This document shows, one piece after another, positions 13,271 to 63,779 of a stretch of 64,000 nt of DNA. Below the pieces are notes generated by a model. It was not told the DNA's origin. It was given only the letters and a program-made list of their open reading frames with translations, and made no database searches. The position numbers were made by a program, and so were the translations under genes. How positions within the stretch are numbered: the stretch's first letter is position 1; every line of letters starts with the position of its first letter. The DNA is taken from positions 12,715-76,714 of the forward strand of contig CAYNRK010000004.1 of the NCBI GenBank assembly GCA_964399675.1, read 5' to 3'. The DNA comes from an uncultured Gammaproteobacteria bacterium (GTDB taxonomy: Bacteria > Patescibacteriota > Patescibacteriia > UBA9934 > GWF2-40-263).

Positions 13271-13296
13271 GTTTTTGATAAAAAACGATTCGGAAA

Positions 13297-13330
13297 ATTT
13301 GACAAACAGGGAAAAATTTGGTTTAATATA
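13297..13330 (+). promoter_or_regulatory. sigma70-like promoter (TTGACA-18-TAATAT) of tRNA-like unit 1
   Basis: Hexamers read directly. The same layout is repeated at 15588..15622. Confidence 0.5.
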
Positions 13331-13427
13331 AATGCAGATGAGGGTTTAAAAACCTCCACCAACTGATGTCAATAAAATCTCCCTTCCAAATTTGTGATGG
13401 GAGATTTTATTTATTTCCCGAGTTCAT

Positions 13428-13504
13428 GGGCTTGTGGAGGTAATTGGTAACCTCATCTGCTTTGACATCAGAAGTTGCGGGTTCGAATCCCGTCGAGTCC
13501 ACCA
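13428..13504 (+). tRNA. tRNA-like gene with Val(GAC)-type loop TTGACAT inside a 9-nt loop closed by a 4-bp stem
   Basis: Good acceptor, D and T arms plus CCA. Anticodon arm is tctg/caga with loop cTTTGACAt. A 12-bp leader-trailer helix (cccgagttcatgg / ccatgactcggg) encloses the body, and a terminator follows. Confidence 0.5.
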
Positions 13505-13602
13505 TGACTCGGGTTCGAGCAAATCCACTTTTAATTAAGTGGATTTGTTTTTGTAAGAAATCAGCTGGAACAATAAGTGGTTTTTTGATAGTCTGGTTTG
13601 GT

Positions 13603-15582: not shown

Positions 15583-15587
15583 TAAAC

Positions 15588-15622
15588 AGACAAAAATTTG
15601 ATTTAATATAACTACGATCGAG
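15588..15622 (+). promoter_or_regulatory. sigma70-like promoter (TTGATA-18-TAATAT) of tRNA-like unit 2
   Basis: Paralogous to 13297..13330. Confidence 0.45.
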
Positions 15623-15705
15623 GTTATCCTCTGTAAATAAATCGGTATCAACCAAAAAGAACTCCCTAAAATTACGGGAGTTCTTTTTGTATAACCCGGG
15701 CTCAA

Positions 15706-15781
15706 GGGCCTGTGGGGGTAATGGTAACCCCGATCGAGTTGATACCGATAGCTGCCGGTTCGAATCCGGTCGGGTCCACCA
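15706..15781 (+). tRNA. tRNA-like gene with Ile(GAT)-type loop TTGATAC inside a 9-nt loop closed by a 4-bp stem
   Basis: Same architecture as 13428..13504 (stem atcg/cgat, loop agTTGATAc). Leader-trailer helix cccggg..cccggg and a downstream terminator hairpin. Confidence 0.5.
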
Positions 15782-15849
15782 TGACCCGGGACTAAACAAA
15801 CCCACCTTAGTTTAGGTGGGTTTGTTGTCTTAGAAATATTGTCCAGCAT

Positions 15850-16326
15850 TCATGTTCGTGACGACTTCTCCCATTCGCGGACAATTGTTAGCGATTCGTT
15901 TTCCAGTTCAGGTAAGTGGACTAATTCTATGGGTTGTGTCAGTTCAGAGTTAATGCTTGATAACTTGTAGTGTCCGCCGTAGTATTCATTTGACACTTTT
16001 TCTTTTTGACATGCAAAAACTATTTTTGGAATTGCACTCCAGCTAGAAGCGCCAAGGCACATAATGCAAGGTTGCATAGATGCATACAGCACCGCGTCAG
16101 ACAGATCACAAGATTGAAGATTTTTGCACGCTGCTCGAATCGCGGCCATCTCGCCATGATTGGTTGGGTCGTTCTGCTTGTTGCCGACGCTGATTCCTTC
16201 ACTAATAACTTTCTCGTTTTTTACGATAACCGCACCGGCAGGAAAGCCTCCTTGCGCTACTGATTCTTTTGCCTTTTCTATTGCTTGTTGTAAAAAATGT
16301 TTGTCTTTCATAGATAATAATTTCAT
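15850..16326 (-). CDS. CMP/dCMP-type zinc deaminase (TadA / guanine deaminase-like)
   Basis: HGEMAAI ... PCIMCLGA zinc-binding signature. Confidence 0.75.
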   Translation of the reverse strand: MKLLSMKDKHFLQQAIEKAKESVAQGGFPAGAVIVKNEKVISEGISVGNKQNDPTNHGEMAAIRAACKNLQSCDLSDAVLYASMQPCIMCLGASSWSAIPKIVFACQKEKVSNEYYGGHYKLSSINSELTQPIELVHLPELENESLTIVREWEKSSRT

Positions 16327-16478
16327 TACTTATGCGGAAGAATATCAACTTTTTATTTTTTTCACAATATTGACAAACATAATTTGACAAAACACAAAAA
16401 ATTTAATTTAATACAATTATCCAGTTGAGATATTATCTCCACGTCGGTGTCAACAAAAATCTCCCTTCCAAATTTATG

Positions 16479-16757
16479 TTAGGGGGTTTTTTGTTTGCCC
16501 CGGGCAAATTTTTTTTGCGCAGCAAGCGCTTTTTCAATACACTCATTTGGATCCAATCCAAGATCATCACACCAACGAATGGATGAGACAATCATATTGC
16601 CAAGTTCCTTTTTCAATTCATCATCCTCAACGCCATCGCGAGCCTGTCTACACAAATCACCATAAACAACACCCATTGCAACGACAATTTCATTAAGTGT
16701 CATTTTTTTATCTCCCCAAATATTTCTGCTTTGTAAAAGAAGTTCTTGAATGGTCAT
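16479..16757 (-). CDS. MazG-like nucleotide pyrophosphohydrolase (small single-domain)
   Basis: About 90-aa all-alpha protein with the MazG-type acidic motif E..E...D. Confidence 0.55.
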   Translation of the reverse strand: MTIQELLLQSRNIWGDKKMTLNEIVVAMGVVYGDLCRQARDGVEDDELKKELGNMIVSSIRWCDDLGLDPNECIEKALAAQKKFARGKQKTP

Positions 16758-19077: not shown

Positions 19078-20032
19078 ACATTTAGAACCTGAGCCTACAA
19101 ACGAGAACGAAACCAACTTACAAAAACCAAAATCTTCTTTATCAAATTTTTTTTCTACAAAGCGTGGAAAGCAAGTGATTGGAATTATTGTTGTTTTGGT
19201 GGTTGTTATAGGGCTTGTATTTTCGGTTTATAAACGAAGTCCTGATGACAAGCTTGTAAGGTTTGTGTCTGCAATTATTCCAATCCCTGCAATTAGCGTG
19301 GATTCACACTCGGTTCGGATGTCTGAATATTTGGTGGAATATGATGCTTTGATTAATTATTTTAATTCCATTGGAGAGGTTGATGAGATTCAAAAGGATC
19401 AAATTAAAGATACTATTGTTGAGACTTTGATTAATAAAGAGGTTGTTAATATTTTAACGGAGGAACACGGTATTTCCGTTGATGATGAAATAGTTGAAGC
19501 ATATTACAATGAAGTTGTTCTTGGTCAGGGAGGACAAGAGTCGTTTGAAACAGAGGCTCAAGAAATGTTTGGTTGGACAAATGAAGAGTTTAAAGAACGT
19601 ATTGTAGAGCCGATTGTGCTGGCACTTAAAATGAGTTCGTATGTGTTAAGCAATGTTGAGATCCAGTCGGGAAAGCGCAGCACTGTTGATAATGCACATG
19701 AGCGGATTATGAATGGGGAAGATTTTGTTTTAGTGGCAAAAGAGGTGCACACGCAAGAGCAGGTGATGTTTGAAACAGATCTTGGGTTTATCAAAATGTC
19801 TGAGTTACCAGAGGAGTTGGTTCATGTGATTGGTGTGCTTCAAGAAGATGAGGTTACAGATGTTATTGATATGTCAGATGCGTTTGTTATTTTCCAACTT
19901 AAAGAAAGAATTAAAACCGGCGATGATTCGCAATTGCATTTGTACTCGCTGACTGTGCCGAAAAAAACATTGGAGGATATGGCTAAAGAGTATTTGTTGA
20001 CGGCAAAGGTTAAAAGATACATCAAATCATAA
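19067..20032 (+). CDS. hypothetical membrane-anchored protein
   Basis: ORF with one N-terminal TM helix. Start set at the first Met after the upstream gene. Weak SurA/parvulin-like flavour only. Confidence 0.4.
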   Translation: MKIEHLEPEPTNENETNLQKPKSSLSNFFSTKRGKQVIGIIVVLVVVIGLVFSVYKRSPDDKLVRFVSAIIPIPAISVDSHSVRMSEYLVEYDALINYFNSIGEVDEIQKDQIKDTIVETLINKEVVNILTEEHGISVDDEIVEAYYNEVVLGQGGQESFETEAQEMFGWTNEEFKERIVEPIVLALKMSSYVLSNVEIQSGKRSTVDNAHERIMNGEDFVLVAKEVHTQEQVMFETDLGFIKMSELPEELVHVIGVLQEDEVTDVIDMSDAFVIFQLKERIKTGDDSQLHLYSLTVPKKTLEDMAKEYLLTAKVKRYIKS

Positions 20033-20066
20033 AAACAGACATGATAATTTTTTTTGGGGGACTCAT

Positions 20067-20142
20067 GCCACCGTAGCTCAGCTGGTAGAGCAATACTTTC
20101 GTAAAGTAGAGGTCAGCGGTTCGACTCCGCTCGGTGGCTCCA
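20067..20142 (+). tRNA. tRNA-Thr (anticodon CGT)
   Basis: Manual cloverleaf. Loop TTCGTAA, T-arm GGTTCGACTCC, encoded CCA. Confidence 0.85.
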
Positions 20143-20158
20143 GAAAGGATCATCTGTG

Positions 20159-20232
20159 GCGGATGTAGTTCAATGGTAGAATGTAAGCTTCCCAAGCTTG
20201 AGGCGGGGGTTCGATTCCCCTCATCCGCTCCA
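20159..20232 (+). tRNA. tRNA-Gly (anticodon CCC)
   Basis: Manual cloverleaf. Loop TTCCCAA, T-arm GGGGGTTCGATTCCCCT, encoded CCA. Confidence 0.85.
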
Positions 20233-20312
20233 AGGGGTCTTTTTTTGTTTGTAAACAGAAAACCCCCGCAGTCCAAGTCGGACTTTGGGGGCAGGGGGAG
20301 AAGTGGTTGTGG

Positions 20313-21620
20313 CTACTGACAGACGACGTTGAACTCGCCGCTGCCGAGACCACATTCGTTCCAGCGGGCCGAAGTGCAGGTGACCGTCTTGAATTCGTTG
20401 CCACCGGCCTGGGCTCGACCGACGAATGCTGCCACGTGCGTTTCGAACGGTCCTCCGCCTTCCACGCAGACTGCGTCACCGATTTCGTAGTTGGTGTGGA
20501 AGTAGACCTCGCGATTGGACGGGATCTCGAGCGGGATCTCGAGGTTCCAGATCATGAGGTACATGTGCGCTCGCTCCCGCGCCTCATCCAAATCCCGGAC
20601 GAGCGGAAGGTTCACGTACTCTACCCTGTCCTCGTACGGAACTGCCAGGTAGAGCTGGAAGGTTGTGTTGCGTCCCATTGCCCAGCTTGCACCTACCAGG
20701 ATTTCGATCGTGTCGATCGTCACCTGGTTGTACCTGGTCCTGACACGAACCGCCTGGGTGTCCAGACGGTTGTCCACTAGATCACTGCAATTGACCACCT
20801 CGGGCACGATGCGTTCGGGCTGGTCTGTGCAGAGAGCCTTGTTGCAGGGCTCGTTGGGTTCGTTGAGTTCCACACATTCGCCGTCCAGACAGAGACCGCT
20901 TTCACACGAGGAGAAGTCCTGCATTGCGCTGTGCACACATTCGCCGTCTGGCGTGCACCGATCCTGCGTGCACTCGTTGCTATCTCCGCAGTGATCGTTT
21001 CCGGTGCACTCCACGCAGCCGGTTGTTGATACTACTCCTTCGGTCTGTGAGATGCACCACCGTTCGGGCTCGTCACATACTCGAATGAGGTTCTCGCATC
21101 GGTTGTTGATGCAGAAGTACTCGCGACACGGCTCGCCTGTGATTGGGCAGTGACGGTCTTCGGTACAGTCCATGCCCGGATCCTCACCAAAGCAGACACC
21201 TTCCTCACACCGGCCATGCGTACCGCACGGCACGTTGTGGAGCGGGACACTCTCGCACCTACCGAAGTAGTTGCACTTGTCGAACGTGCACGGGTTGTTG
21301 TCCAGGCAATGCATCGGATCCGTGCATTCGATACAGCCCGGAACCTTGGTGTTGTAGGACGCGTGGGGCACGCACCACTCACCCTCGCCACAGAGGACCG
21401 ATGCCCACTCGCATCGGTTGTTGAGGCAGACCGGGATGAGACAGGCGTTGCCAGTCCCGCAGTCCAGATCCTCCCAACACTCGATGTTGGGATCGGTTGG
21501 TTGCGAACCCGCGTCCGTGTCGGAGTACGGAACTCCTGTGAACACGAGTTCACGTGTTCGTGCGTCATCGCATCCCCCGAGGAACACAACGAGCAGGGAA
21601 GCGATCATCAGCTTGTACAT
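20313..21620 (-). CDS. cysteine-rich secreted lipoprotein with Cys-repeat modules (GC-rich island)
   Basis: Signal peptide plus lipobox (..VVFLGGC). Many CxxDxxC / CTxDxC repeats. Strong SD aaggtgg. Composition about 60% GC against the AT-rich flanks. Confidence 0.7.
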   Translation of the reverse strand: MYKLMIASLLVVFLGGCDDARTRELVFTGVPYSDTDAGSQPTDPNIECWEDLDCGTGNACLIPVCLNNRCEWASVLCGEGEWCVPHASYNTKVPGCIECTDPMHCLDNNPCTFDKCNYFGRCESVPLHNVPCGTHGRCEEGVCFGEDPGMDCTEDRHCPITGEPCREYFCINNRCENLIRVCDEPERWCISQTEGVVSTTGCVECTGNDHCGDSNECTQDRCTPDGECVHSAMQDFSSCESGLCLDGECVELNEPNEPCNKALCTDQPERIVPEVVNCSDLVDNRLDTQAVRVRTRYNQVTIDTIEILVGASWAMGRNTTFQLYLAVPYEDRVEYVNLPLVRDLDEARERAHMYLMIWNLEIPLEIPSNREVYFHTNYEIGDAVCVEGGGPFETHVAAFVGRAQAGGNEFKTVTCTSARWNECGLGSGEFNVVCQ

Positions 21621-21824
21621 GTTTCCACCTTTGTGGATGACCGGCCATCGGCCTACCTTTTACGCTCGCGCGTCCGTTTGTCATTGCTGAAAATGACATT
21701 CGGAGGTCAAGATCTCTAAACAATTCAATCAGGTTGGCGCCTAATCAAACAGAGAAACAATATACCAGAAAATTAGGCTTTTGTCAACAGTTCTCGTATG
21801 GTAAAATGAATAAGCTTTTGGAAT

Positions 21825-22505
21825 ATGATCCGTCTTAAAAACGTTTCAAAATTTTATCTACCCAACATTGTTGGTGTGCAAGGTGTTAGTCTCCACATTC
21901 CGGCCGGGGAATTTGTTTCTATTGTGGGTCAAAGCGGAACCGGAAAAACCACACTTGCAAAGCTTTTGTTTGTTGAGGAGCGACCAAGTCGAGGGAAAAT
22001 TGAGATTGGTGGATGGGATATTAGTAAAATTGATGAGCGTGAGGTTCCACTTCTTCGCAGGCAAATGGGAGTTGTTTTTCAGGATTTTAAGTTGCTTCCC
22101 AAGAAAACCGTTTACGAAAATATTGCTTTTGCACTTCAGGTTGCGGGTGCCAGGCCAAAACGAATTCGAGAAGTTGTGCCACGCGTCTTAGATATTGTGG
22201 GGCTTTCAGATAAACACAATCGCTATCCAAAACAACTTTCAGGCGGGGAGGCACAGCGTGTTGCAATTGGAAGAGCGCTTGTTCATCAACCAAAATTGTT
22301 TGTAGCTGATGAGCCAACCGGAAATCTTGATACTTTAAACACGCTTGAAATAATTGATCTTCTTAAAAAAATAAATGAGTTTGGCACAACAGTTGTTTTG
22401 GTCACACACAACCGAGAGGTTGTTAATCGTTTGAAAAAAAGAGTCATCACATTAGATGACGGTCGGGTTGTTTCAGATGTGGAAGAGGGAAGATATAAAT
22501 TATAA
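21825..22505 (+). CDS. ftsE: cell-division ABC ATPase
   Basis: Walker A GQSGTGKTT, ABC signature LSGGEAQRVAIGRAL, Walker B LFVADEPTGNLD. Confidence 0.85.
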   Translation: MIRLKNVSKFYLPNIVGVQGVSLHIPAGEFVSIVGQSGTGKTTLAKLLFVEERPSRGKIEIGGWDISKIDEREVPLLRRQMGVVFQDFKLLPKKTVYENIAFALQVAGARPKRIREVVPRVLDIVGLSDKHNRYPKQLSGGEAQRVAIGRALVHQPKLFVADEPTGNLDTLNTLEIIDLLKKINEFGTTVVLVTHNREVVNRLKKRVITLDDGRVVSDVEEGRYKL

Positions 22506-22612
22506 TTGCTGTCATCCCGAGCGAAGGCCCGTCAGACGGGCCGAAGCCGAGGGATCTCGAATATTGCGAGATCTCTCCGCTCGCTTCGCTCGGTCGAGAT
22601 GACATCTAGTAT
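22505..22612. repeat. family-A palindromic element (modules 3 and 4 plus the ggcccgtcagacgggcc submodule)
   Basis: gtcatcccgagcgaag..gagggatctcgaatattgcgagatctctcc..tcgagatgac. Confidence 0.8.
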
Positions 22613-23525
22613 GTTTGTAAATTCATACAGAGTAACAAAATTCGCTTTCCAGAATTTCTGGAGAAATTTTTGGTTGTCCATAGTGACAATAAGCATGTTG
22701 ATTTTGACATTGCTTACAATTAATATTTTGCTTGTTCTGAATCATGTTACAAATCAGGCAATAGGGTTTGTTGAGGATCGGATTGAGGTGTCAGTGTATT
22801 TTCACGATTCAACTGAGGAAGAAACAGTAACATCAGCGGTTGATTATTTGCGATCATTAGCGCAGGTTAAAAATGTTGAAACGATTTCAGCTGGTGAAGC
22901 TTATGAACGATTTGTTGAACGACACCAAGACGAGCCGGCAATTATGGATTCGCTTGAAGAGTTGGGTGGTAATCCATTTGGTCCAACCCTAATAGTAAAA
23001 GCGTTTGCTGCCGAGGACTTTGATTTGATTATTGAGGCTTTGGATAATCCAAAGTTTAGAGATGATATTAGGGAAAAAGATTTTTCAGATTATGAGCAAA
23101 TAGTTGAAAAGATTCAATCAACAACCAGCAAGATTCGAACGTTTGGGGTTGTGTTATCTTTGATCTTTTTGTTTATTGCCACTTTGATTATTTTCAACAC
23201 AGTCCGAATGGGGGTTTTTGTACACAGAGAAGAAATTGGAATAATGAAATTGGTTGGAGCATCGAATTGGTTTGTAAGAGCACCGTTTATACTTGAGGCG
23301 ATTTTGCTTAGTTTGATCACAGTGGCACTTGTTGCAATTCTTGTTTATCCAACTATTTCAATTTTAGAACCAAAGTTTGATTTGTATTTTGGCGGACAGA
23401 GTTCAGAGGTGGTTGAGTATTTCAAACAAAACGGACTTAAGATTTTCGGCATTCAATTGCTTGTAATGATTGCCTTGACCATAATTTCAACAAGCATGGC
23501 TATAAGGAAGTATTTGAAGGTTTAG
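22601..23525 (+). CDS. ftsX: cell-division permease
   Basis: 4-TM FtsX-like permease following ftsE. The track ORF starts at 22506 because the repeat is open in frame. Start placed at the first Met after the repeat. Confidence 0.75.
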
Positions 23526-23568
23526 ACTTGAATTTTTTTCTATTGTCATTTACAATCCGCTCGTTCAC

Positions 23569-23642
23569 TCCCGGATCGTCTAATGGCAGGACACCTGGTT
23601 TTGGTCCAGGCAATCGGGGTTCGAATCCCTGTCCGGGAACCA
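23569..23642 (+). tRNA. tRNA-Gln (anticodon TTG)
   Basis: Manual cloverleaf. U1-A72 start, loop TTTTGGT, T-arm GGGGTTCGAATCCCTG, CCA. Confidence 0.8.
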
Positions 23643-23682
23643 AAGCAAAAACACCAGTCAAGCTGGTGTTTTTGCTTTGGAA
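23643..23682 (+). terminator. terminator hairpin after tRNA-Gln
   Basis: aaagcaaaaacaccag-tcaa-gctggtgtttttgcttt. Confidence 0.7.
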
Positions 23683-23803
23683 AAGTCCAGAATCCAGACC
23701 TGGCTCCTTTGTCCCTTTTCAAGCCGGTCAGAAATCAAGATTAAAATAAAAAAACAGCAAGTCATCCTTGCGTGCTTCTATCACAATTATCCATCCAGAT
23801 TGT

Positions 23804-24067
23804 TTATTTCAAGTGTTGGTCGAACTGATCTTTTGTACAAATTTCTGTTGCAACAACCCTCCTCATTAAATCTTTTATAATATATTTATTCACTGTATTG
23901 TGTTTGAAAGGTATCGGGAATGGTCTTGACCAAGAGTCGTGTTTAATTAGCCATTGATGTTTTCCTCCATTATCAACTGTAAATCCGGTTTGAGCCTCTA
24001 ACCATTTCAACAACTTTAATACCTTATTGCGCTTTACATCTGCATACTCTCCCATAGTTCTTTTCAT
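23804..24067 (-). CDS. hicA: HicA-family toxin (mRNA interferase)
   Basis: About 87 aa with ..GGKHQWLIKHD..PIPFKHNTVNKYIIKDL.., the HicA dsRBD-like signature. Confidence 0.7.
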   Translation of the reverse strand: MKRTMGEYADVKRNKVLKLLKWLEAQTGFTVDNGGKHQWLIKHDSWSRPFPIPFKHNTVNKYIIKDLMRRVVATEICTKDQFDQHLK

Positions 24068-24460
24068 TTAAGAAGCGGGTAACGCAACTTTGCCAAAATT
24101 AAAAGAAGATTTTTTAATTGCTGTATTGTTCAATTCATCAAATTCTTTTTGTGATGGTCTTACTCTGTAATGTCCACCTAATTCTTTTGCGTAATTAAGA
24201 GGGATTTTATAAACAGCATAAAGTACATCATTCACCATTTCAATAAACTCTTGAGCAGATTTGGCTTGAGTTATATAACGCTCACCATCAACATCAATAA
24301 AACCTATTATAAAGTCACCGTCTCTTTTCCAAGAAACACTGACTGGATTACTAAGTTTATGGGCGTTTGCTACCAAGACTTCAAATATAATTTCACTATC
24401 TCCAAAGATAGCTTCCTTTATTATTGACAGTTTGTATTTAAGTGGTGATAAAGCAGGCAT
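24068..24460 (-). CDS. hicB: HicB-family antitoxin
   Basis: Directly upstream of hicA in the same operon. UPF0150-like ..FEVLVANAHKL..SVSWKRDGDFIIGFIDVDGERY... Start set at the internal Met. Confidence 0.65.
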   Translation of the reverse strand: MPALSPLKYKLSIIKEAIFGDSEIIFEVLVANAHKLSNPVSVSWKRDGDFIIGFIDVDGERYITQAKSAQEFIEMVNDVLYAVYKIPLNYAKELGGHYRVRPSQKEFDELNNTAIKKSSFNFGKVALPAS

Positions 24461-24639
24461 AAAAAATTTGAAATTCAAAAGGAGAATTATCAATAAAACT
24501 CAATGTTGTCAATAATACTCATTCAATTTGATTATATCATTGAATTCTCAGCTTAGATACACTCTGGCAATTAAGGAGGTTCAAACGACTAAAACAAAAA
24601 CACCTTCAATTACAGCAAGGGTTTGTTGAGAACAAAAGA

Positions 24640-24690
24640 ATATACTTATAAAATACTTCGCGATCGCGAAGTATTTTATAACAACTTTTC
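24640..24690. terminator. perfect palindrome tacttataaaatacttcgcgatcgcgaagtattttataa (bidirectional terminator-like)
   Basis: Member of the TACTTATA..CGATCG..TATAAGTA hairpin family. Confidence 0.6.
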
Positions 24691-24776
24691 AAAAAGAAAA
24701 GCCGCCTGTACAAGAACGGAAACGTATCGGCATTTGAGTTATGCAAACAGTTTTTCTTGTATGGCGGTTGAGCAGC

Positions 24777-24983
24777 CTATGAGGAGGCCAGTCCGAGTTC
24801 CTCGAGGCTCTTGAACGGAACGACGGTGACCTGGTGATGCTTGTCATTGGAAGTGACACCAACATCGCTTCCGTCGTCTGGGTCACCTACTCGAAGTCGC
24901 TTCTGCCTGCACCATTCCATGGCGTTATCTATGGCGATCTGCTTGGTGAACGGCCCGTCTTCTGTGAAGCTCACTACGTGCAC
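24777..24983 (-). CDS. hypothetical small protein (GC-rich island)
   Basis: 68-aa ORF. Downstream motif gcggcttttcttttt is shared with the next gene. Confidence 0.35.
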   Translation of the reverse strand: MHVVSFTEDGPFTKQIAIDNAMEWCRQKRLRVGDPDDGSDVGVTSNDKHHQVTVVPFKSLEELGLASS

Positions 24984-25188
24984 GGCTCTTTGGTTTTCAT
25001 TACCCAGTCTCCTTTTCCTCGGTTCGAGAGTGTGGTCGATTTGGTTAAGGTTTTGTATCAGAAAACCAAAAGTCTGTCAATCCAAAACAACCTTATTATT
25101 AAAAGAGAATTTTTTACTCAAAAAGAAAAGCCGCGCCTTAGAGTAGACGGGCCGTGCGTGTGCTGCTCATGGCAGCTGGTTGCTGCGG

Positions 25189-25521
25189 TTAGGCAGCGAT
25201 CGGGACGATCTCGTAGCTTCCGAAGCGTCCGATACCACCGATGGCGGCCTTGTCAGCGCTTGTCAGGCCGAAGAGCTCGGTGTATCCCGCTGCCACGTTG
25301 GGGTGGAAGCCGGCGAGCAGTCTCGCGAGTGTTCCGGTTCTGGTGCCCATGCCGCCTTCGGGGCTGTCGAGGAAGGCCTCGAAGCTGCCATCGTCGCGAC
25401 GTTCGATGTGGTTATCCCACAGAGACCTGCCCCACATGATCCACCTCTCGACCCTGATCACTCTGCCATCTCTGACAGTGATCTTGTTCGGGGGAAGCTC
25501 GACGTTTGCTCGGCTGGCCAT
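25189..25521 (-). CDS. hypothetical protein (GC-rich island)
   Basis: 110-aa ORF in a roughly 60% GC block. Shares the downstream gcggcttttctttttga motif. Confidence 0.4.
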   Translation of the reverse strand: MASRANVELPPNKITVRDGRVIRVERWIMWGRSLWDNHIERRDDGSFEAFLDSPEGGMGTRTGTLARLLAGFHPNVAAGYTELFGLTSADKAAIGGIGRFGSYEIVPIAA

Positions 25522-25662
25522 GAAGCACCTTCCTTGTCGATGATCTGTTTCGGATGGAGTTAATTATTTTTACAGGTATGAAGTTGCATTGTCAACAAAA
25601 ACACCTTCATCAGAGAGAAGGGTTTGTTGATTTTTCTTTACACATGAGGAAGAATAAGATAT

Positions 25663-26352
25663 ATGCCTATTGACCAAAAAGAATGGGAACAGGAGGTTCG
25701 AGATGTATTTGAAAAAATGAAAACACATCAAGAACCGTACGATATTTCTGTTGATGGAGTTGATATTACAATTCTTCCAAATGTATTTTCACCCGCTTAC
25801 TTTACTGATAGCGCCTGGTTTACCAGACATGTTTCCAGAATTGCAAAAGATAAAACATTACTTGAGATTGGAACTGGCACTGGTATTGTTGCTTTGTTTG
25901 TAGCGCTTAATGGCGCGACAGTGACTGCAACAGATATAAGTCCGGATGCAGTTGAAAATGCAAAGCTTAATTTTGAAAAATACGGTATTGATGCAAGTGT
26001 GTATTTGGGAAACATGTACGAACCTATTCCAACAGATTCTCAATTTGATATAATTTTTTGGAACCATCCATTTAACAAAGGCGATAATCCAGACGAAGAA
26101 ATTTTGTTGCAATCCGGATTTGATTATAACTATAATTCGCTAAAACAATATCTTGGAAATGCAGAGCGCTTTTTAAAACCAAACGGTCAGTTGCTATTAG
26201 GAACAGGGAATTTTGCAAAGTTAGATGAAGTTGAAAAGATTGCCTCTGAGGCAGGTTATGAAATGGAGCTTCTTGTTAAAGAAGACATGCCTCTTGCTGC
26301 TTCAAGTGAAATTGACAACGATTATCGAATCTATTCATTTTTCAAAAATTAG
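25663..26352 (+). CDS. class I SAM-dependent methyltransferase (NPPY-type, HemK/RsmC-like)
   Basis: Motif I LEIGTGTGIVAL and motif IV IIFWNHPF. Confidence 0.7.
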   Translation: MPIDQKEWEQEVRDVFEKMKTHQEPYDISVDGVDITILPNVFSPAYFTDSAWFTRHVSRIAKDKTLLEIGTGTGIVALFVALNGATVTATDISPDAVENAKLNFEKYGIDASVYLGNMYEPIPTDSQFDIIFWNHPFNKGDNPDEEILLQSGFDYNYNSLKQYLGNAERFLKPNGQLLLGTGNFAKLDEVEKIASEAGYEMELLVKEDMPLAASSEIDNDYRIYSFFKN

Positions 26353-29677: not shown

Positions 29678-29732
29678 TTAAAAGACGGACATAAGGGTCT
29701 GTTTTTTGTTTGTGATATAATTATTCCTGTCA

Positions 29733-29885
29733 TCTCGACCAAGGCGTTACTTACCCTTGTCATCTCGACCAAGGTGCTACTTACCCTTGTCATCTCGACC
29801 AAGGTGCTACTTACCCTTGTCATCTCGACCAAGGTGCTACTTACCCTTGTCATCTCGACCGAGCGAAGCGAGCGGAGAGATCTTG
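29733..29885. repeat. tandem array of four and a half 30-bp units (ccttgtcatctcgaccaaggtgctacttac) running into a family-A module
   Basis: Direct tandem copies with no spacers. The unit equals the gtcatctcgacc end of family A. Confidence 0.85.
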
Positions 29886-30184: not shown

Positions 30185-30535
30185 TCGAGATTTCTCGCGT
30201 AAAGCGACGTGCCACGTAAAAGCTCAAGCACTCTACGTGGTGTGGTCGCCACGCGACTTTGCGTCGGCTTCGCTCGGGATGACAAAAAAGAAATAATTGT
30301 CATCTCGACCGGAGGCCCGTCAGACGGGCCGGAGCGGAGAGATCTCGAATATGCGAGATTTCTCCGCTCGCTGTGCTCGGTCGAAATGACATAATAATAA
30401 TTGGTCGAAATGACATGTATCGGTTGTCATCCCGAGCGAAGCCGAGGGATCTCGAATATTGGAACAACACGATTCGAGATTTCTCCGCTCGCTTCGCTCG
30501 GTCGAAATGACAGAAACGGCACTGACACATAGAAT
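30185..30535. repeat. cluster of family-A modules, including the cgcgtaaagcgacgtg..cacgcgactttgcg palindrome and three gtcat..gatctcgaatat..atgac units
   Basis: Read directly from the sequence. Confidence 0.85.
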
Positions 30536-38085: not shown

Positions 38086-38142
38086 AAAAAATACTTATAA
38101 AATACTTCTCGATCGAGAAGTATTTTATAAGTATTTTTTTGG
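38086..38142. terminator. 54-bp perfect palindrome (A-tract tacttataaaatacttctcgatcgagaagtattttataagta T-tract)
   Basis: Bidirectional terminator-like. Same family as 24640..24690, 5369..5413 and 54185..54236. Confidence 0.7.
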
Positions 38143-38225
38143 TTCCCAATAAAGTTAACAGAAAAACCGCCAGAACTTCCTTGGGATGGGAAGGTGGCGG
38201 CTTGAGAATCGTGTGGTTGGTTAGC

Positions 38226-38672
38226 TCACACGCGCGTGCAGGTTTTGGCCTCGCAGTCAATGTGACATGCATCGCCCTTTTCGATTTCTTGTCCCCTGAA
38301 GTTGGCACCAAGCACGTCTTCTCCGTAGTCCTCAGGGAACCACCTCGTATACTCGAAGTGGGTTACCAGGATCAGGAAATCGGCTTGATCCGCATGCTCC
38401 TGGATCAGGGCAATGGCAGCGTCTGAGTCCATTGGATGGCTGGCTTCCGACCAGAGCACCTCGTGTTCGGTGAAGCTGACACCGAACAGGTCGGCCAGGA
38501 TCTGGGCGCTCTCGCTTGCTCGATCCTTGGTCGATGAGAGTATGCACACGGAAGCGTTGCCGATGCGCTCCTTCAGCCTAGCGTGCAGTGCGCGAATCTG
38601 CTCGGTACCGCGTTTGGAGAGGTGGTCATCGGCTTTGTAGTGACCGTGCCGGACCACAATCAGACTCTTCAT
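38226..38672 (-). CDS. histidine phosphatase family protein (SixA / phosphoglycerate-mutase-like), GC-rich island
   Basis: N-terminal LIVVRHGHY (RHG catalytic motif). SD ggagga. Followed by ccgccag..ctggcgg hairpin and T-tract. Confidence 0.7.
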   Translation of the reverse strand: MKSLIVVRHGHYKADDHLSKRGTEQIRALHARLKERIGNASVCILSSTKDRASESAQILADLFGVSFTEHEVLWSEASHPMDSDAAIALIQEHADQADFLILVTHFEYTRWFPEDYGEDVLGANFRGQEIEKGDACHIDCEAKTCTRV

Positions 38673-38916
38673 ATTCTTCCTCCAACATGGAGATCAAGGC
38701 TCCGTTCTCACCATCTCATCGATATGAGAGCTGGGGAGAATTTAGGCTTGTTTCTAGCTGAATATTAGTAAGAAAAATTATCATAAAAAGACTTTTTTGT
38801 CAACACAAAATCGTCAGCTTTCGCTGAGCGCATGTGGCTTGCCACGTGAACACCGACGTTGTACTACACTACAGCCCCGTAAAATTGACATACCGACATG
38901 GTCAATCACGTGGCAC

Positions 38917-39105: not shown

Positions 39106-39153
39106 GTTTCTTGTTGTTTCGCAATGGTGCGGACAACACTCCGGGGAGAGGAT

Positions 39154-39255
39154 CATGCCCGCGAAGCACCGATGCGGTCACAACCGCTGCCAGTTCTCCA
39201 CGTCGCAGGCGCACCGCAGCGCCAAGGACATGGGCGGCGGCTCCAAGAAGAAGTA
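39154..39255 (+). CDS. 33-aa basic peptide MPAKHRCGHNRCQFSTSQAHRSAKDMGGGSKKK (GC-rich micro-island)
   Basis: Preceded by RBS ggagagg. Has its own promoter and a downstream terminator. Not in the ORF track because it is shorter than 60 aa. Confidence 0.4.
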
Positions 39256-39270
39256 GCCCAACAACTCGAA

Positions 39271-39315
39271 CTCACCCTGCGGGGCGCCTACTCTAGGGCG
39301 CCCCGTGTTCGTTTT
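39271..39315. terminator. GC-rich hairpin cggggcgcc-tactcta-gggcgcccc followed by T-tract
   Basis: Bidirectional. Also the 3' end of the minus-strand RimK-like gene. Confidence 0.7.
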
Positions 39316-41813: not shown

Positions 41814-41824
41814 ATATCCCCCGA

Positions 41825-41866: not shown

Positions 41867-41871
41867 CATTT

Positions 41872-44032: not shown

Positions 44033-44130
44033 TCACCCCCCTCTTTTTGCGTCTTTGCGAGCCCCCTTTCGCGGAAAGGGGCGAAGCCCGTCCGAACGGC
44101 CGCAAGGCCGGGCGGGCAATCTCCGTTGAG
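44033..44130. repeat. GC-rich family-A variant (gcgtctttgcgagccccctttcgcggaaaggggcgaagcccgtccgaacgg..)
   Basis: Module 1 plus a cccctttcgcggaaagggg hairpin. Confidence 0.6.
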
Positions 44131-44245
44131 AACTATGTAGGACAGTCACGTTGTATAATTTCGGCAGACTCGCTTCGCTCGTGCTGGCGAAATTATACAA
44201 TATACCTGTTGATGGCGTCCTGGAGGTTCGTTGGAGGATTGTGGG
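44131..44245 (+). repeat. family-B repeat (about 110 bp), copy 1
   Basis: gacagtcacgttgtataatttcggcag..ctggcgaaattatacaa..cctgttgatgg..ttcgttggaggattgtg. Near-identical to 45412..45530 and 56521..56635. Confidence 0.85.
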
Positions 44246-44462
44246 GGACAGTCATGTTGTTTCACATGCACACAGGAAAAATTTTCTTGCTGCGGAACTC
44301 GTGCTCTTTGTTGTTTATTTTAAAGGTAAGCACTCAGACAGTCCTCGCTGCAAAAATTTTCCCTGTGTGCATGTGAAACAAATCCGAGGGCATTATTAAA
44401 TAGAAAAACCGCCAGAGCTTTCAGTGAAAGATGGCGATCTGATTGCTTGCTGAGTTCGTGGC

Positions 44463-45296
44463 CTAGGCCGCGAGCGGGAAGCGGTCGTGAAGGAGCTTCA
44501 TGGCGTTGAGCCCGATGAGTGCGGCTTCTTCGTCGCCGGTGACCTCGAACGTGTTGGTCTGGCGATTGCCGTAGATGGCGTTGACCGAGCCGGCCCAGTA
44601 GCCGCCATGGGTCATGCACCAGACGTAGATCGTTGCCGACTCCATGGAGTAGAGCAATACACCGCGTTGGGTCAGCTCGTCGTGGAGCATTTGCAAGCGC
44701 GGAGGGATGTAGCCCATGTCGTCCGGTCGTGCCTGGCCTTCGTTGAAGCACGTGGTTGTTGCCTCAATGCCGACGTGGTGCGGCAGGCTGAGAGTCTCGG
44801 CAGCCTCGATGAGCGCAGCGATCACTCGGTGGTCAGCGAATGCAGGATACTCGATCGGCGCCCAGTTGGTGCTGGCGCCATCCAGTCGAACAGCCCCGCT
44901 TGCGATGGCTGATTCACCGACGTTCGGCTCTCTCTGGAGCGTGGAGCATGAGCCCACACGGATAAAGCGCTCTGCTCCCGAACGCACTGCCTCGGGCAGC
45001 ACAATGCCCGTGGATGCGCTGCCCATGCCGGTTGTGACCACAGACATGGGAACGCCCTGGAATTCGCCGGTGAAGCTCCTGAGCCCCCGGTGATCACCGA
45101 CCTTGATCGCCCCGGGACCGAAGAAGCGGCTCACCAACTCCTCAGCATCCTTGATCGGATCTGTTCCGGCGATCAGCTCTGCCCGTTCGGGTGAGCCCAC
45201 CAACAGGCAGTGGGGCGCCAGATCGTGTGCGTCTGTGTGGAGATGGTATTGCTTGCCACCTGCAGAGGTTGGGGCGTCAGCCTTTCTATCGCTCAT
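44463..45296 (-). CDS. nucleoside phosphorylase, PNP/UDP family 1 (purine/uridine phosphorylase-like), GC-rich island
   Basis: ..HCLLVGSPERAELIAG.. N-terminal fold and ..TGMGSASTGIVLPE.. segment typical of PNP_UDP_1. Confidence 0.7.
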   Translation of the reverse strand: MSDRKADAPTSAGGKQYHLHTDAHDLAPHCLLVGSPERAELIAGTDPIKDAEELVSRFFGPGAIKVGDHRGLRSFTGEFQGVPMSVVTTGMGSASTGIVLPEAVRSGAERFIRVGSCSTLQREPNVGESAIASGAVRLDGASTNWAPIEYPAFADHRVIAALIEAAETLSLPHHVGIEATTTCFNEGQARPDDMGYIPPRLQMLHDELTQRGVLLYSMESATIYVWCMTHGGYWAGSVNAIYGNRQTNTFEVTGDEEAALIGLNAMKLLHDRFPLAA

Positions 45297-45411
45297 GAAA
45301 CCCTCCTGGTTTCGCAGAGGTTCAAAAACAAAAACCGTTCGTATATTTACAACGGTTTAAGTGTTCTGTCAACCATGTCGCTTTATACGAAGCAATCTCC
45401 GGGAGACTTTT

Positions 45412-45530
45412 GGGGGACAGTCACGTTGTATAATTTCGGCAGACTCGCTTCGCTCGTGCTGGCGAAATTATACAACGTACCTGTTGATGGTGGCTTGGGG
45501 GTTCGTTGGAGGATTGTGTGAGTGCGGGTG
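45412..45530 (+). repeat. family-B repeat, copy 2 (direct repeat of copy 1)
   Basis: Over 90% identity by eye. Confidence 0.85.
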
Positions 45531-49848: not shown

Positions 49849-49851
49849 AAA

Positions 49852-53285: not shown

Positions 53286-53456
53286 GAATGCGAGATCTTC
53301 AATCAACTATTGACATTTTAGTCTTTTTTTGTTAATTTATTTTTCTCTTTGCCACAGTGTTTAGTGCACCAACTTGATGCCTTAAACGTTGTGGCAAAGG
53401 GCGCTGCTTGCGCATATCGCGTAGGAGTTTGTTGGTTGCCATGGCAAAGGAACACA

Positions 53457-54044
53457 ATGGCTGCAAGTATTGGTCAGGCATTGGAGCTCATGACAAAGCT
53501 CGCAACAGCAGTCCCGTGGGGCGAGCTGGACAAACAGTTCGTTCAAGGTCTCATCGCTGACCCAGAGATCGGTTCTGAGTTCGTCTACTTCCTTCGAAAC
53601 TGGGGCGGGTCGGTCGTCGGTGAGCAGATCATCGACCTCGAAGTCAATCCGTTCATTCCGGATGGTTCTGAGATCTGCCCCAAGGACCAGATCGACAGCA
53701 GCGTTTGCGGCAAGTTCATCTTCGACCCCGATCAGATCGAGCTACATCTCGATTCGGGTCAGGAAGACGAGGAGTCGATCCAAGGCTATGACCTGCGCAG
53801 AGCCCTTGAGGGTCAGCCGGTTTTGCCCGCACATGTTCTCGACTTCCTGCTCGAGAACCCGCACTTCATCCCGGAGAGCTGGGAGGACAAGGGGGTGTTC
53901 TTCTGGGGCACCATCTACCGCTGCTCGGGCGGCAGCCTGTATGTCCGTTGCCTCCGCTGGCGCGGTGCTAGGTGGTGCTGGCGCTACGGCTGGCTTGGCG
54001 ATCACTGGGGCTCCGACGATCCTGCTGCGGTTTCCGCAAGCTAG
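53457..54044 (+). CDS. hypothetical protein (GC-rich island)
   Basis: ORF in a roughly 60% GC block. Preceded by TTGACA-like promoter elements and a 5' hairpin ctttgccacag..ctgtggcaaag. Confidence 0.45.
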   Translation: MAASIGQALELMTKLATAVPWGELDKQFVQGLIADPEIGSEFVYFLRNWGGSVVGEQIIDLEVNPFIPDGSEICPKDQIDSSVCGKFIFDPDQIELHLDSGQEDEESIQGYDLRRALEGQPVLPAHVLDFLLENPHFIPESWEDKGVFFWGTIYRCSGGSLYVRCLRWRGARWCWRYGWLGDHWGSDDPAAVSAS

Positions 54045-54184
54045 GATCTGGGAATCTGGAGCTCTGGTTACTAAGCTCTTTGAACTCTTGACTCCTAGCT
54101 CTCAACGGCCAATCACACTCGTGAACGGTCGTTTTTCAATTTAATTATTGATTTTTAAATTATCGAAAAACTTTTTAGAAAAAA

Positions 54185-60545: not shown

Positions 60546-60563
60546 TGACAAGGAAGTAAGGAG

Positions 60564-61124
60564 GTGCGAATGCACAACTCGGTTGTTGCCATGTTCTGTG
60601 GCCCGCACGAGGACGGAAGGCCTACCTCCCGTCGCATCAACGCAGCGATCCAGACGGCCATGGGTCTGAAGGCACCGTTGATGATCGCCGGGGACGCGAA
60701 CGATGGCAAGGACCTGGAGTTGTTTGCCGGTCGCGCACACCGCCGTTCTCCCGCCCTGGATGTTGTCAAGCTCTACGACGAGCGCGCCAACACGCTCGCT
60801 GACGTCCAGATTCTCATCGAAGAGCTTCGCGAGCACAGGCATCGCGGAGTCACCACGATCTACCTGGTCACGGACTGGTGGCACATGCCCCGTTCGTTCG
60901 TGATGCTCGCCCTGGAGCTTCAGAACTTGATGCCAGAGCGTCGCTTTGACATCCAGATCGTGAACGTGCGGTGTCCTGAGCCGCCTCATGAAGAGCTTCT
61001 CGGAGAGCGGCAGGGAATCATGCACTACCTTGCTGGCACTTACGGCAGCCACGAGCTCACACGAAAGCCGTACGGAAAGCCAGCACAGGAACGTGCACTC
61101 GCGGCTCCTGTAGCCGCGAACTAA
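60564..61124 (+). CDS. DUF218 (YdcF/SanA-like) domain protein, GC-rich island
   Basis: ..IYLVTDWWHMPRSFVML.. matches the conserved DUF218 core. Strong SD aggaggt. Confidence 0.6.
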   Translation: MRMHNSVVAMFCGPHEDGRPTSRRINAAIQTAMGLKAPLMIAGDANDGKDLELFAGRAHRRSPALDVVKLYDERANTLADVQILIEELREHRHRGVTTIYLVTDWWHMPRSFVMLALELQNLMPERRFDIQIVNVRCPEPPHEELLGERQGIMHYLAGTYGSHELTRKPYGKPAQERALAAPVAAN

Positions 61125-61179
61125 AGAGCGCCAGACCATCTACTCGGTCCAGCGCTCATTTCTTTTTATTATTTTGCGT

Positions 61180-62273: not shown

Positions 62274-62308
62274 TTTCTTGTCAGAGTCTGGGGAACCAAG
62301 GAGGCACA

Positions 62309-62761
62309 ATGAGACTGCAAGGCATTCTGACACTGATCGCACTGCTTTTCCTGTCGGTGGTGGCTTGCAGACCGCCGCTCGAGTTCCTGCGTGGCGATGA
62401 TCACCTTTCCGATCAGAAAGAGTCCGAGCTCGATATGAGCCGTGCCGATCCGATCGTCAAGACAGTCGCCAAGATCTACAAGGGCAAGGAGGAGCTTCGA
62501 CAAGACGACATGGTCGATCTTTCCTGCGACGATCTCTACTTGCTCTGGCGAGCACTCTTCAGCAAGTACTTTCACTCAAACCTCGGCACCTGTCTGAAGG
62601 AGGGTGAGATCTGTTTGCGTCGGGAGGGTGTGGCCTGGATCGCAGAGGACGATCATGGTTTCAAGGACGACCCGCATACCATCAAGAGGTTCACCAAGGT
62701 CGACCGGAGCAATCGGCGTGCAATCGCCGCAATGAGATCTGAGAGTGGTTGTACTGACTAG
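62309..62761 (+). CDS. hypothetical lipoprotein (GC-rich island)
   Basis: Signal peptide with lipobox ..SVVAC. About 60% GC. Confidence 0.5.
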   Translation: MRLQGILTLIALLFLSVVACRPPLEFLRGDDHLSDQKESELDMSRADPIVKTVAKIYKGKEELRQDDMVDLSCDDLYLLWRALFSKYFHSNLGTCLKEGEICLRREGVAWIAEDDHGFKDDPHTIKRFTKVDRSNRRAIAAMRSESGCTD

Positions 62762-62898
62762 GGCATCACATGGCCCCAGGAACACGATCTGATCGCTTTC
62801 ACACTAGCTGCCCACTGGGCGGCTCTTTCGTTTGACAAAAATAGGCTTTTGGTGTAGGGTATTCACTCGGAAAAAGATGAACCGAGAGGAGGAAAACG

Positions 62899-63684
62899 AT
62901 GAGAAATCGTACGAGCACTGCGGCGAGCTGGATGGCAATCGCCATCGTGTTCGCCTTCTCCGTTCCCATGGTCGCAACAGCTGAGGAATCCGACACCGAA
63001 GCCGGAGCCGAAGGCGAAGGTGAGGGCGAAGGTGAGGGCGAGGACGGAGCCGAACCCGCCGAGGTGGTCTTGACAGGGGGAGGAACGGACGACGTCGTTC
63101 TGTCGAACACCGGCGGTGGTGGCAAGAAGGCCAAGAAGAAGGTCAAGAAGGGCAAGTGCGCTGACGGGAGCGACTGCGACTGTCGGAAGGCGGTCAGAGT
63201 CGCGCTCAAGGAAGCACGCGACGGATTCAAGAAGGCCAAGAAGAAGGCCAAGAAGGCCGCTGGAGAGCAGCAAGAGGCAGCCATCAGGGCTGCGGTCGAG
63301 AAGGCCGAGACAGCACTTCGCGCAGAGCTTCACAAGGGCGAAGAGGAGCGAGCCGAGGAAAAGGTCAAGAGGGCTCTCGCAGGCAGGCGTTCAGAGTTCC
63401 ACCTGGAGTGGATCCTCGAGGGCATGTTCGCGGGAACCGAGCTCACAGACCACGTGCTCGCCGAGCTGGATTGTGCACAACTGGGCATGCTCAAGATCAT
63501 GCCGCGTGCACGTCACGGATATGTCCCGGAAGACATGGAAGTGCGCAGGAAGCTCCTTGCTCAGGAGTGGTACAAGCCGAATCCTGCAGTCGACGACGCA
63601 GCTCTGCCCAGCCGCATGACCTCGGCGGATCAGCTCAACGAGCTCCGGATCAACAAGGCGCTCACTGCCAAGGAATGCGAGTAG
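62899..63684 (+). CDS. secreted protein with acidic (EGEG)n and Lys-rich regions and C-terminal YARHG-like domain (GC-rich island)
   Basis: Signal peptide. C-terminal ..[28 protein letters not shown].. matches the YARHG motif. SD gagaggagg. Confidence 0.55.
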
Positions 63685-63779
63685 TACAACAACTACCCGC
63701 AAGTCCACCACGACCGCTCAGCAATGGGCGGTTTTCAAATTGAAAAAAAAGTTTGAATGTTGTATATTCCGATGGTTGT

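Follow-up and report, generated by a model that had tools for sequence, protein, structure and literature searches.

Extensive horizontal gene transfer in Patescibacteria has already been published, and the closest account is a study of aquifer members of the phylum (PMC12455944; mSystems 2025), the accessible part of which reports hundreds of islands together with singly transferred genes, transferred DNA amounting to up to 13% of genome length, and 83% of transfers occurring within the phylum, with a minority of cross-phylum transfers into Patescibacteria. Here we describe a 64,000-nt stretch of a Patescibacteria contig (CAYNRK010000004.1, positions 12,715 to 76,714; hereafter the window) in which eight sharply bounded GC-rich islands, each with one or two genes, interrupt an AT-rich backbone, and which we consider likely to record repeated, recent acquisition of single genes from donors of higher GC content. 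The window resembles the aquifer genomes in phylum, in habitat type, in the share of DNA concerned (up to 13% there versus 10.7% here) and, for a nucleoside phosphorylase gene, in transfer within the phylum. It differs in its pattern of GC-rich genes in AT-rich DNA, in its inserts of single transcription units, in their slots at tRNA genes and palindromes, and in a related phosphorylase cassette bounded by terminal inverted repeats (TIRs), none of which is described in the accessible part of that study. We regard the window as a clear example of a published phenomenon and not as a new kind of system, the more original items being the TIR-bounded cassette, which lies outside the window islands, and several side observations.

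Three other classes of element invite comparison. Like classical tRNA-linked genomic islands, the window islands have atypical composition, adjoin tRNA genes (islands 1, 3/4 and 8) and occupy slots in which the cargo differs among relatives, but they are 0.2-1.5 kb rather than >10 kb in length and have no integrase, duplicated tRNA 3' end or att repeats, as judged from a whole-window repeat scan and from an open reading frame (ORF) scan that covered all but about 15, mostly short, ORFs of the window. Like integron cassettes, they are single-gene modules inserted one by one; unlike them, they have their own promoters and are dispersed, with no attC-like imperfect-palindrome site in common and no intI among the ORFs scanned. 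The phosphorylase cassette found in other genomes is similar to mobile insertion cassettes (MICs; PMC4337579, PMC5444012) in that its long terminal inverted repeats enclose a single passenger gene without a transposase, but its four copies have no visible target-site duplication at their ends and no insertion sequence family assigned to them. The window's own islands are without such bounding repeats and are thus not assigned to the MICs.

Composition and boundaries of the islands

In a 300-nt composition profile combined with a 120-nt scan, the islands stood out as blocks of 55-64% GC over a backbone of ~40% GC. An earlier sequence-only reading had placed them at 20285..21700, 24770..25560, 38160..38700, 39110..39310, 44400..45310, 53390..54130, 60550..61140 and 62290..63720, and all eight intervals were confirmed to within ~50 nt. 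Its description of single- or two-gene islands was also right, with island 2 consisting of two small minus-strand genes and island 8 of two plus-strand genes. Together the islands amount to 6,868 nt, or 10.7% of the window, with a pooled GC of 0.578 versus 0.399 elsewhere; 300-nt segments of the backbone had a GC of 0.399 +/- 0.043 (n=180), and those entirely within islands averaged 0.585. At the island edges GC usually stepped from 0.22-0.34 to 0.50-0.61, measured over 100 nt on each side. Smaller GC bumps at ~2.7, 8.8, 30.3, 35.2, 37.2 and 47.5 kb, which the sequence-only reading did not list, fall not on genes but on a GC-rich palindromic repeat described below.

The island signal is carried by third codon positions, since their GC content (GC3) was 0.67-0.76 in nine island coding sequences (CDS) compared with 0.318 +/- 0.056 in 55 backbone ORFs (z = 6.2-7.8). 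Across the window GC3 was bimodal, with few intermediates, and the core genes proved uniform in composition, so that the heterogeneous core-gene GC which would have refuted the sequence-only reading was not seen. The islands differ from the backbone in GC skew as well (+0.03 versus +0.15), and half of their genes (5/10) lie on the minus strand as against 9/56 backbone ORFs, counted from ORF tables (Fisher p = 0.03): the island genes are randomly oriented and the backbone is co-oriented. Synonymous codon choice in every island gene was better matched by GC-rich Patescibacteria references than by the backbone, with log2 likelihoods per codon of about -1.5 to -1.7 for GC-rich Patescibacteria loci and -2.2 to -2.5 for the resident backbone. 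Assignment of donors by the same measure was tried and abandoned, as it separates the resident backbone from GC-rich references but not GC-rich lineages from each other. The usual pattern is that acquired DNA is AT-richer than the core, and GC-rich imports such as those proposed here run opposite to it.

Assembly support and sister genomes

The source is an ultra-small groundwater-type bacterium with an AT-rich genome. Proteins 57-69% identical to its FtsX bear the labels Uhrbacteria, Parcubacteria or Patescibacteria, which places it in the Patescibacteria and probably in a Uhrbacteria-like lineage. The backbone genes are of the housekeeping kind and include those for Mur ligases, FtsE/FtsX, LepA, LigA, DnaX, RecJ, RNase J, GatA and Lgt, as well as a VKOR homologue, type IV pilus genes and a VirD4-like ATPase. 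The 435-aa protein of island 1 is encoded on at least 10 public contigs, and the fetched loci represent seven samples (ENA SUTE22 and two SCRA20; JGI 3300009374 and 3300009107; Logan SRR8062330 and SRR9166041). Positions 10.3-31.6 kb of the window, a stretch that spans islands 1 and 2 with both junctions of each, are 99.86-100% identical to the loci from these samples, and the sole difference is one 30-nt indel. This gap, seen relative to L001, L002 and L055, probably falls in a tandem array of 30-nt units (TACTTACCCTTGTCATCTCGACCAAGGTGC) at 29718-29867. A 286-aa variant of the 435-aa protein was considered as another strain's pseudogene and rejected, the DNA being identical and only the gene call differing. 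The phosphorylase and SixA-like proteins of islands 5 and 3 were found on 8-9 contigs of up to 237 kb.

Sister loci were taken as those with an FtsX 67-84% identical to that of the window. Core synteny is kept in them (GT2, MurD-like, Mur ligase, bPH, DivIC, SurA-like, tRNA-Thr, …, FtsE, FtsX, tRNA-Gln, …, CoaD-like), and the syntenic core genes all have low GC3. Islands 1 and 2 are absent from the syntenic slots, where L041, L042, L044 and JGI 3300072015 have other genes. After tRNA-Thr, where the window has the 435-aa gene, there are GC-rich ORFs of 162 aa in L042 and of 132 aa in L044, and a 186-aa gene in a JGI contig; after tRNA-Gln, where the window has island 2, L041 carries two unrelated GC-rich genes. 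No orthologues of the GC-rich ORFs at 8-32 kb of the window were found in the sister loci, and the GC-rich ORFs of the sister loci likewise had none in the window. A metagenome scan for sister loci that used the SurA-like neighbour found nothing. Other low-GC Patescibacteria loci hold additional GC3 outliers besides the phosphorylase. Among the hallmarks of horizontal acquisition, strong compositional deviation is thus present, syntenic absence is seen for islands 1 and 2, and closest homologues in a different lineage or in non-syntenic contexts are seen for the phosphorylase, the one gene whose relatives could be traced.

The phosphorylase gene and its cassette

The gene of island 5 (44463..45296, minus strand; GC3 0.74) encodes a 277-aa protein which, by profile match, is a uridine-phosphorylase-like member of the PNP_UDP_1 superfamily (80.5 bits versus a cut-off of 25.1; E 1.6e-22) with a substrate that is predicted only. 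The assignment is made at the superfamily level because the TIGR01718 score, 179.6 bits, is below the equivalog cut-off of 280.3. The best 120 relatives are 57-100% identical, and the named ones are almost all from Patescibacteria (Magasanik-, Uhr- and Vogelbacteria, Parcubacteria), the others having uninformative titles. The closest relative (75%) belongs to Candidatus Magasanikbacteria GW2011_GWA2_56_11, on a contig of 54-56% GC, in which the GC3 of the gene (0.78) is within the range of its neighbours (median 0.64), that is, of native composition. There is no homology between the window gene and this relative outside the CDS, and so the direct donor of the window phosphorylase is unsampled. 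Protein taxonomy, the check that had been suggested for each island, thus traced the phosphorylase but left the other island genes untraced.

A genome scan for the phosphorylase returned 30 loci, 29 of which were analysed. The gene was GC-richer than its flanks at 29/29 loci. For eight genomes whose flanks are at 0.37-0.41 GC the excess reached +0.17 to +0.28, whereas for most of those whose flanks are at 0.50 GC or above it was +0.06 to +0.10, an ordinary value that partly reflects gene-versus-intergenic and amino-acid composition. Where flanking GC was 0.37-0.44, GC3 of the gene ranged from 0.37 to 0.88, a spread that would be expected of amelioration over differing times since transfer. Five loci (L015, L017, L018, L020 and L021) with copies 82-93% identical in protein have no neighbour gene in common. 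On four Patescibacteria-type contigs with unrelated flanks, the gene is found in a 1.07-kb cassette in which 65-75-nt TIRs (GTTATCGGA…TTTTGCCCCCAATTTTTTATCGCAACAATTTTCTA) enclose a promoter, the uridine-phosphorylase-like gene and a terminator (L015 298-1372; L017 1290-2360; L018 9878-10913; L050 6188-7260). The last of these, found through a metagenome scan for the cassette repeat, matches L015 1372-298 at 87.5% over 1,078 nt, with nothing alignable beyond. With copies of 82-93% identity found in unrelated contexts, and with DNA homology starting and stopping at the repeats, these comparisons show that the phosphorylase is passed among Patescibacteria on its own, in some lineages within a defined cassette. 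The repeat was also considered as a general end for other cargo, an idea we rejected since the scan gave one further phosphorylase cassette and eight partnerless single matches, including one on a contig whose ends are telomere-like (CCCCAAAA).

The boundaries of the window phosphorylase differ from those of the cassette, in that island 5 is bracketed by two plus-strand copies of a 116-nt hairpin repeat (family D; 44128..44243 on the left and 45403..45518 on the right) that are 91% identical and in direct orientation. Family D is a dispersed element with a third copy at ~56.5 kb (56504-56637). A whole-window direct-repeat scan found no repeat pairs flanking islands 1, 3/4 or 8, island 5 alone being flanked by direct repeats.

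Transcription units and insertion sites

Reading of the flanks by eye showed that each island comprises one or two complete transcription units. Most islands have a TTGACA-type -35 and a TATAAT-like -10 element in the AT-rich DNA just beyond the GC-rich block, followed by a leader of 40-130 nt, a strong Shine-Dalgarno sequence and the CDS, after which come a GC-rich hairpin and its T tract. The flanks therefore bear out the earlier claim of hairpin terminators and of an individual promoter and Shine-Dalgarno sequence for most island genes; a consensus scan for promoters and terminators covered positions 19900-26000. The 3' motif that the islands were said to share was confirmed as two exact pairs which are rare in shuffles, TCTGGCGGTTTTTCT being located 3' of islands 3 and 5 and GCGGCTTTTCTTTTTGA 3' of both island-2 genes, but not as a signature common to all islands. 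No convincing TIRs were found around the window islands, where the only pair, around island 4, was 37 nt long and 70% identical.

The insertion points are intergenic and often adjoin tRNA genes, namely tRNA-Thr/tRNA-Gly (island 1), tRNA-Gln (islands 3 and 4) and tRNA-Ser (island 8). In addition, an AT-rich perfect palindrome with a CGATCG centre (family C) abuts island 2 (24638..24691), island 3 (38087-38140) and island 6 (54180-54233). It is probable that the family-C palindromes are resident bidirectional terminators that mark tolerated insertion points.

The GC-rich segment of island 1 (20250..21700; GC 0.58) lies between tRNA-Gly and the divergent ftsE promoter region, and is abutted by tRNA-Thr(cgt) and tRNA-Gly(ccc) (20067..20232, plus strand). 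Its gene, for the 435-aa orphan lipoprotein (20313..21620, minus strand; GC3 0.73), has a sigma70-like promoter in AT-rich DNA just beyond the GC-rich block (21759..21787, minus strand; TTGACA, 17 nt, TATATT, extended TG) and a hairpin terminator (CCCCCAAAGTCCGACTTGGACTGCGGGGGTTTTCTG; approximately 20245..20292, minus strand). Island 2 comprises, on the minus strand, a 110-aa ORF without a family match (25189..25521; GC3 0.76), which has its own promoter and terminator, and a 68-aa ORF (24777..24983; GC3 0.67) whose terminator tail is identical over 17 nt to that of its neighbour. Island 3 encodes a 148-aa histidine phosphatase (His_Phos_1, SixA-like; 38226..38672, minus strand; GC3 0.70). Island 4, adjoined by tRNA-Gln(ctg) at 38950-39023, has a 33-codon ORF (MPAKHRCGHNRCQFSTSQAHRSAKDMGGGSKKK; 39157..39258, plus strand) with a TTGACA promoter, a GGAGAGG Shine-Dalgarno sequence and a GC hairpin terminator. 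The genes of islands 6, 7 and 8 are on the plus strand. Island 6 holds a 196-aa ORF without a family match (53454..54044, open from 53349; GC3 0.72), and island 7, with a copy of the family-A palindromic repeat directly upstream (60462-60554), a 186-aa ORF (60564..61124; GC3 0.72) with a weak, sub-cut-off DUF218 match (E 0.001). Island 8, which is followed by tRNA-Ser(gga) at 63780-63867, encodes a putative lipoprotein of 151 aa (MRLQGILTLIALLFLSVVAC...; 62306..62761; GC3 0.68) and a 261-aa secreted or membrane protein (62899..63684; GC3 0.73) that has Lys/Glu stretches of low complexity and matches YARHG close to the threshold.

The accessory nature ascribed to the island genes was supported. 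As to the individual protein labels, PNP_UDP_1 was solid, His_Phos_1 was over its cut-off and Dicty_CTDC, for the island-1 protein, was marginal (27.8 bits, cut-off 27), while YARHG (26.1, cut-off 27) and DUF218 (19.4, cut-off 27.6) fell short. Two kinds of cargo were considered and dismissed: defence systems, for which there was no PADLOC match, and phage genes, given that four island proteins and the phosphorylase alignment had no relatives in IMG/VR and only one weak PHROG match was obtained.

The Cys-repeat lipoprotein of island 1

The 435-aa protein begins with a signal peptide and lipobox, FLGG-C17 (MYKLMIASLLVVFLGG-C17), which were read from the sequence and not by a dedicated predictor; the lipobox Cys, together with the Lgt gene of the window (58485-59258), is as expected of a lipoprotein. 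There are 35 Cys in residues 48-280, where the Cys spacing pattern, C-x5-C-x5-C-x4-C-x4/5-C, confirmed four modules of ~52 aa with 8 Cys each, and the C-terminus (~155 aa) is predicted to be beta-rich and has no family assignment. In this spacing and in a CT-D-C motif the protein is like Dictyostelium CTDC and similar bacterial Cys-rich repeat proteins (PF00526), but the Dicty_CTDC match is marginal (gathering cut-off 27.0; two stretches), homology is limited to the repeats, and neither the lipoprotein anchor nor the C-terminal domain has a counterpart in any match. Searches of NCBIfam, PHROGs and PADLOC gave nothing, and no PDB sequences matched at E <= 1. A single-sequence AlphaFold2 model was unusable (mean pLDDT 37).

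An exhaustive HMMER scan of 1.84 billion representatives gave nine weak matches (E 1.7e-9 to 6e-4), which are confined to the Cys-repeat region except for P0138 (residues 256-314) and P0145 (residues 258-432). Among the matches are proteins of Magasanikbacteria and Sandaracinaceae, both repeat-only, and hypothetical proteins from JGI. On these results the protein is an orphan, with no full-length relative in the databases searched, and a deltaproteobacterial or eukaryote-like origin, which the resemblance noted by the sequence-only reading might suggest, was not upheld, as repeat-only matches occur in Magasanikbacteria as well as Sandaracinaceae. The island-1 product is plausibly a surface-anchored disulfide-rich lipoprotein, and may act as an adhesin. 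We favor a disulfide-rich lipoprotein because Lgt and a VKOR-type oxidoreductase (41794-42309) fit with it, and the protein would be matured by these two enzymes encoded in the window.

Origin of the islands

Taken as a whole, the evidence makes it likely that the islands arose by repeated, recent horizontal acquisition of single genes from higher-GC donors, which supports the sequence-only reading both on acquisition and on single-gene inserts. Where a gene is traceable, as the phosphorylase alone is, its relatives point to other Patescibacteria, and not to a host, as the pool from which it was drawn. Each island would be a self-contained unit (promoter, ribosome-binding site, CDS and hairpin terminator) inserted in an intergenic slot, and many of these slots adjoin a tRNA gene, a palindromic terminator already resident there or a short repeat. 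The island genes would retain the codon usage of donors with an estimated ~56-62% GC because the time elapsed has been too short for the AT-biased mutation of the recipient to erase it. Entry may have occurred by natural transformation and recombination at repeats, or by cassette transposition; the type IV pilus genes in the window would permit DNA uptake, and the direct repeats of island 5 would fit Campbell-type recombination at a resident repeat. Transposition-like movement also occurs, as the cassette in other genomes shows. Because no integrase, transposase or att duplication accompanies the islands, we infer the insertion mechanism, as we do the route of entry and, where the genes are orphans, how recently and in which direction they were transferred.

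Several observations weigh against acquisition as the explanation. At no island was an integrase, transposase or att duplication found among the ORFs scanned, and by sequence search nine of the ten island genes are without an identified donor. In a word-indexed search of 5.8 billion clusters the only match to the 435-aa protein was itself, and none of the other island proteins had a homologue in the Patescibacteria loci that were fetched (~600 kb). GC3 is sharply bimodal, which requires either a burst of gains or fast turnover, and the strains sampled are all clonal, which bears on presence or absence within the species. Lastly, the GC-rich minus-strand genes in the slots of L042 (7933-8421) and L044 (273-671) are homologous at 30%, in loci whose core proteins are 67-83% identical; this pair could reflect independent capture of related cargo at a single hot spot, or else the persistence of GC-rich composition.

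We think it unlikely that most islands came from outside the phylum, that is, from the bacterial host of this presumed episymbiont or from other GC-rich community members, with the phosphorylase as the exception. Such donors would be in keeping with the nine island genes that lack a traceable Patescibacteria relative, with the match of the Cys-repeat modules to a Sandaracinaceae (Myxococcota) protein, with a codon fit that cannot tell GC-rich Patescibacteria from other GC-rich donors, and with the minority of cross-phylum transfers into Patescibacteria given in the accessible part of the aquifer study (PMC12455944). However, the sole traceable gene indicates Patescibacteria, the repeat-only matches also include a Magasanikbacteria protein, and the same part of that study places 83% of transfers within the phylum. 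The full HMMER scans gave no full-length homologue in any sampled lineage, and host origin is therefore without positive support. The host that the sequence-only reading had named as a possible donor is thus disfavored, given that the phosphorylase has its relatives in Patescibacteria or under uninformative titles and moves among them singly.

Lower still is the probability we give to the islands being long-term residents held GC-rich by GC-biased gene conversion at recombination hot spots or by selection on mRNA or expression, although a phosphorylase whose GC exceeds that of its flanks in all genomes examined, the distantly homologous same-slot genes of L042 and L044 (cores 67-83% identical) and a bimodal GC3 with few intermediates would all be expected of such genes. 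The smaller GC excess of the phosphorylase in GC-rich genomes is explained in part by ordinary composition, its GC3 in low-GC genomes varies widely (0.37-0.88), as differing times since transfer would produce, and its copies of 82-93% identity occur in unrelated contexts and in a discrete mobile cassette. Moreover, no GC-rich gene of the window is common to the sister loci in the regions compared, and the islands are without the GC skew and orientation bias of the recipient. The absence of orthologues in the sister loci and the range of phosphorylase GC3 also speak against the dedicated high-GC gene class that had been proposed as the alternative to transfer. An assembly or binning chimera that joined reads of GC-rich and AT-rich organisms has a negligible probability in our view: the data are of metagenome type, for which an abrupt change in composition is a classic warning, but the sequence of islands 1 and 2 with its junctions is reproduced in independent assemblies of seven samples by three pipelines, so that the chimerism which would have undone the sequence-only reading was not borne out there. 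A chimera would need 16 false junctions without any causal repeat, the promoters and terminators of the islands are fitted to their slots, and recipient-specific repeats bracket island 5.

A broader form of horizontal acquisition would be a GC-rich pool of ready-to-express single-gene cassettes shared by low-GC Patescibacteria through one dedicated, recombinase-less exchange system, the cassettes moving either by TIR-bounded transposition or through recombination at hairpin repeats and at the palindromes of terminators. Such a system, and not a series of independent transfers, would then have left as its footprints the eight islets, the phosphorylase with its bracketing repeats and the GC-rich cargo that recurs at the same tRNA slots in sister genomes. 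We regard the existence of such a system as doubtful.

Repeats and other elements of the backbone

The GC-rich palindromic repeat mentioned above (family A) is ~100 nt long (TGTCATCCCGACCGAGCGAAGCGAGCGGAGGGATCTCGCATATTCGAGATC…GATGACA) and is found at at least 10 window sites (~2694, 8792, 22510, 27477, 30298-30516, 35175-35334, 37224, 40220, 47531 and 60462). One copy is in frame in DnaX (37224-37294), between the matches to the clamp-loader ATPase and to DnaX_C, and another is at the 5' end of a long FtsX ORF, upstream of the FtsX starts of other assemblies. Sequence comparison indicates that the repeat is specific to this lineage. The repeat-rich intergenic DNA at 35175-35334 is adjoined by a gene of the low-GC backbone for an 847-aa VirD4/TraG-like type IV coupling protein (32596-35139).

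A second element, a 36-nt C7/G7 hairpin (ACCCCCCCTAACCCCCCCTTGAAAAGGGGGGGAAC), is inserted in frame in housekeeping genes, with copies at 45788-45823 and 46449-46483 in LepA (45577-47433), at 54813-54850 in LigA and, on the minus strand, at 40044-40079 in a RimK-like gene. It adds 12 residues twice in LepA and once in LigA, and is read from its reverse strand in the RimK-like protein. An alignment with the Aquifex LepA structure sequence (2ywe) has gaps at both LepA element sites. None of the other loci fetched, sister genomes included, has this element. Rickettsia palindromic elements have been reported in frame within protein-coding genes, and the 36-nt element is similar to them in this siting. 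Intergenic copies are located at 49382, 49851, 52216, 52790 and 53246, and direct copies bracket each of two DUF559 (Vsr-like endonuclease) paralogues of ~90% identical DNA (49382-49896 and 52786-53291). This arrangement recalls REP/RAYT units, in which a nuclease gene is flanked by repeats that it may mobilise.

The accessory DNA of the window is only partly GC-rich. A low-GC accessory block at 12443-16757, which had no orthologues in the sister locus L042, encodes a class IV aminotransferase, a PPDK_N-type PEP-utilising enzyme, a cytidine deaminase and a small ORF. The gene at 13444-15582 is flanked by tRNA-Ser(tga)-like sequences at 13428-13504 (weak) and 15706-15781, and one promoter box recurs at 13296, 15576 and 16381.

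Significance for Patescibacteria

About one-tenth of the window DNA is likely to consist of recent single-gene imports, including an enzyme of nucleotide salvage and several predicted surface proteins. Because Patescibacteria rely on other cells and their genomes are tiny, each gene gained can alter salvage or attachment, and the Cys-rich lipoprotein of island 1 is a candidate for mediating host-cell contact. The GC signal is unusually clean, and such imports should therefore be easily found in any low-GC relative. The phosphorylase provides a concrete and testable case of a gene that, by the comparisons made here, moves among Patescibacteria in a defined 1.07-kb cassette.

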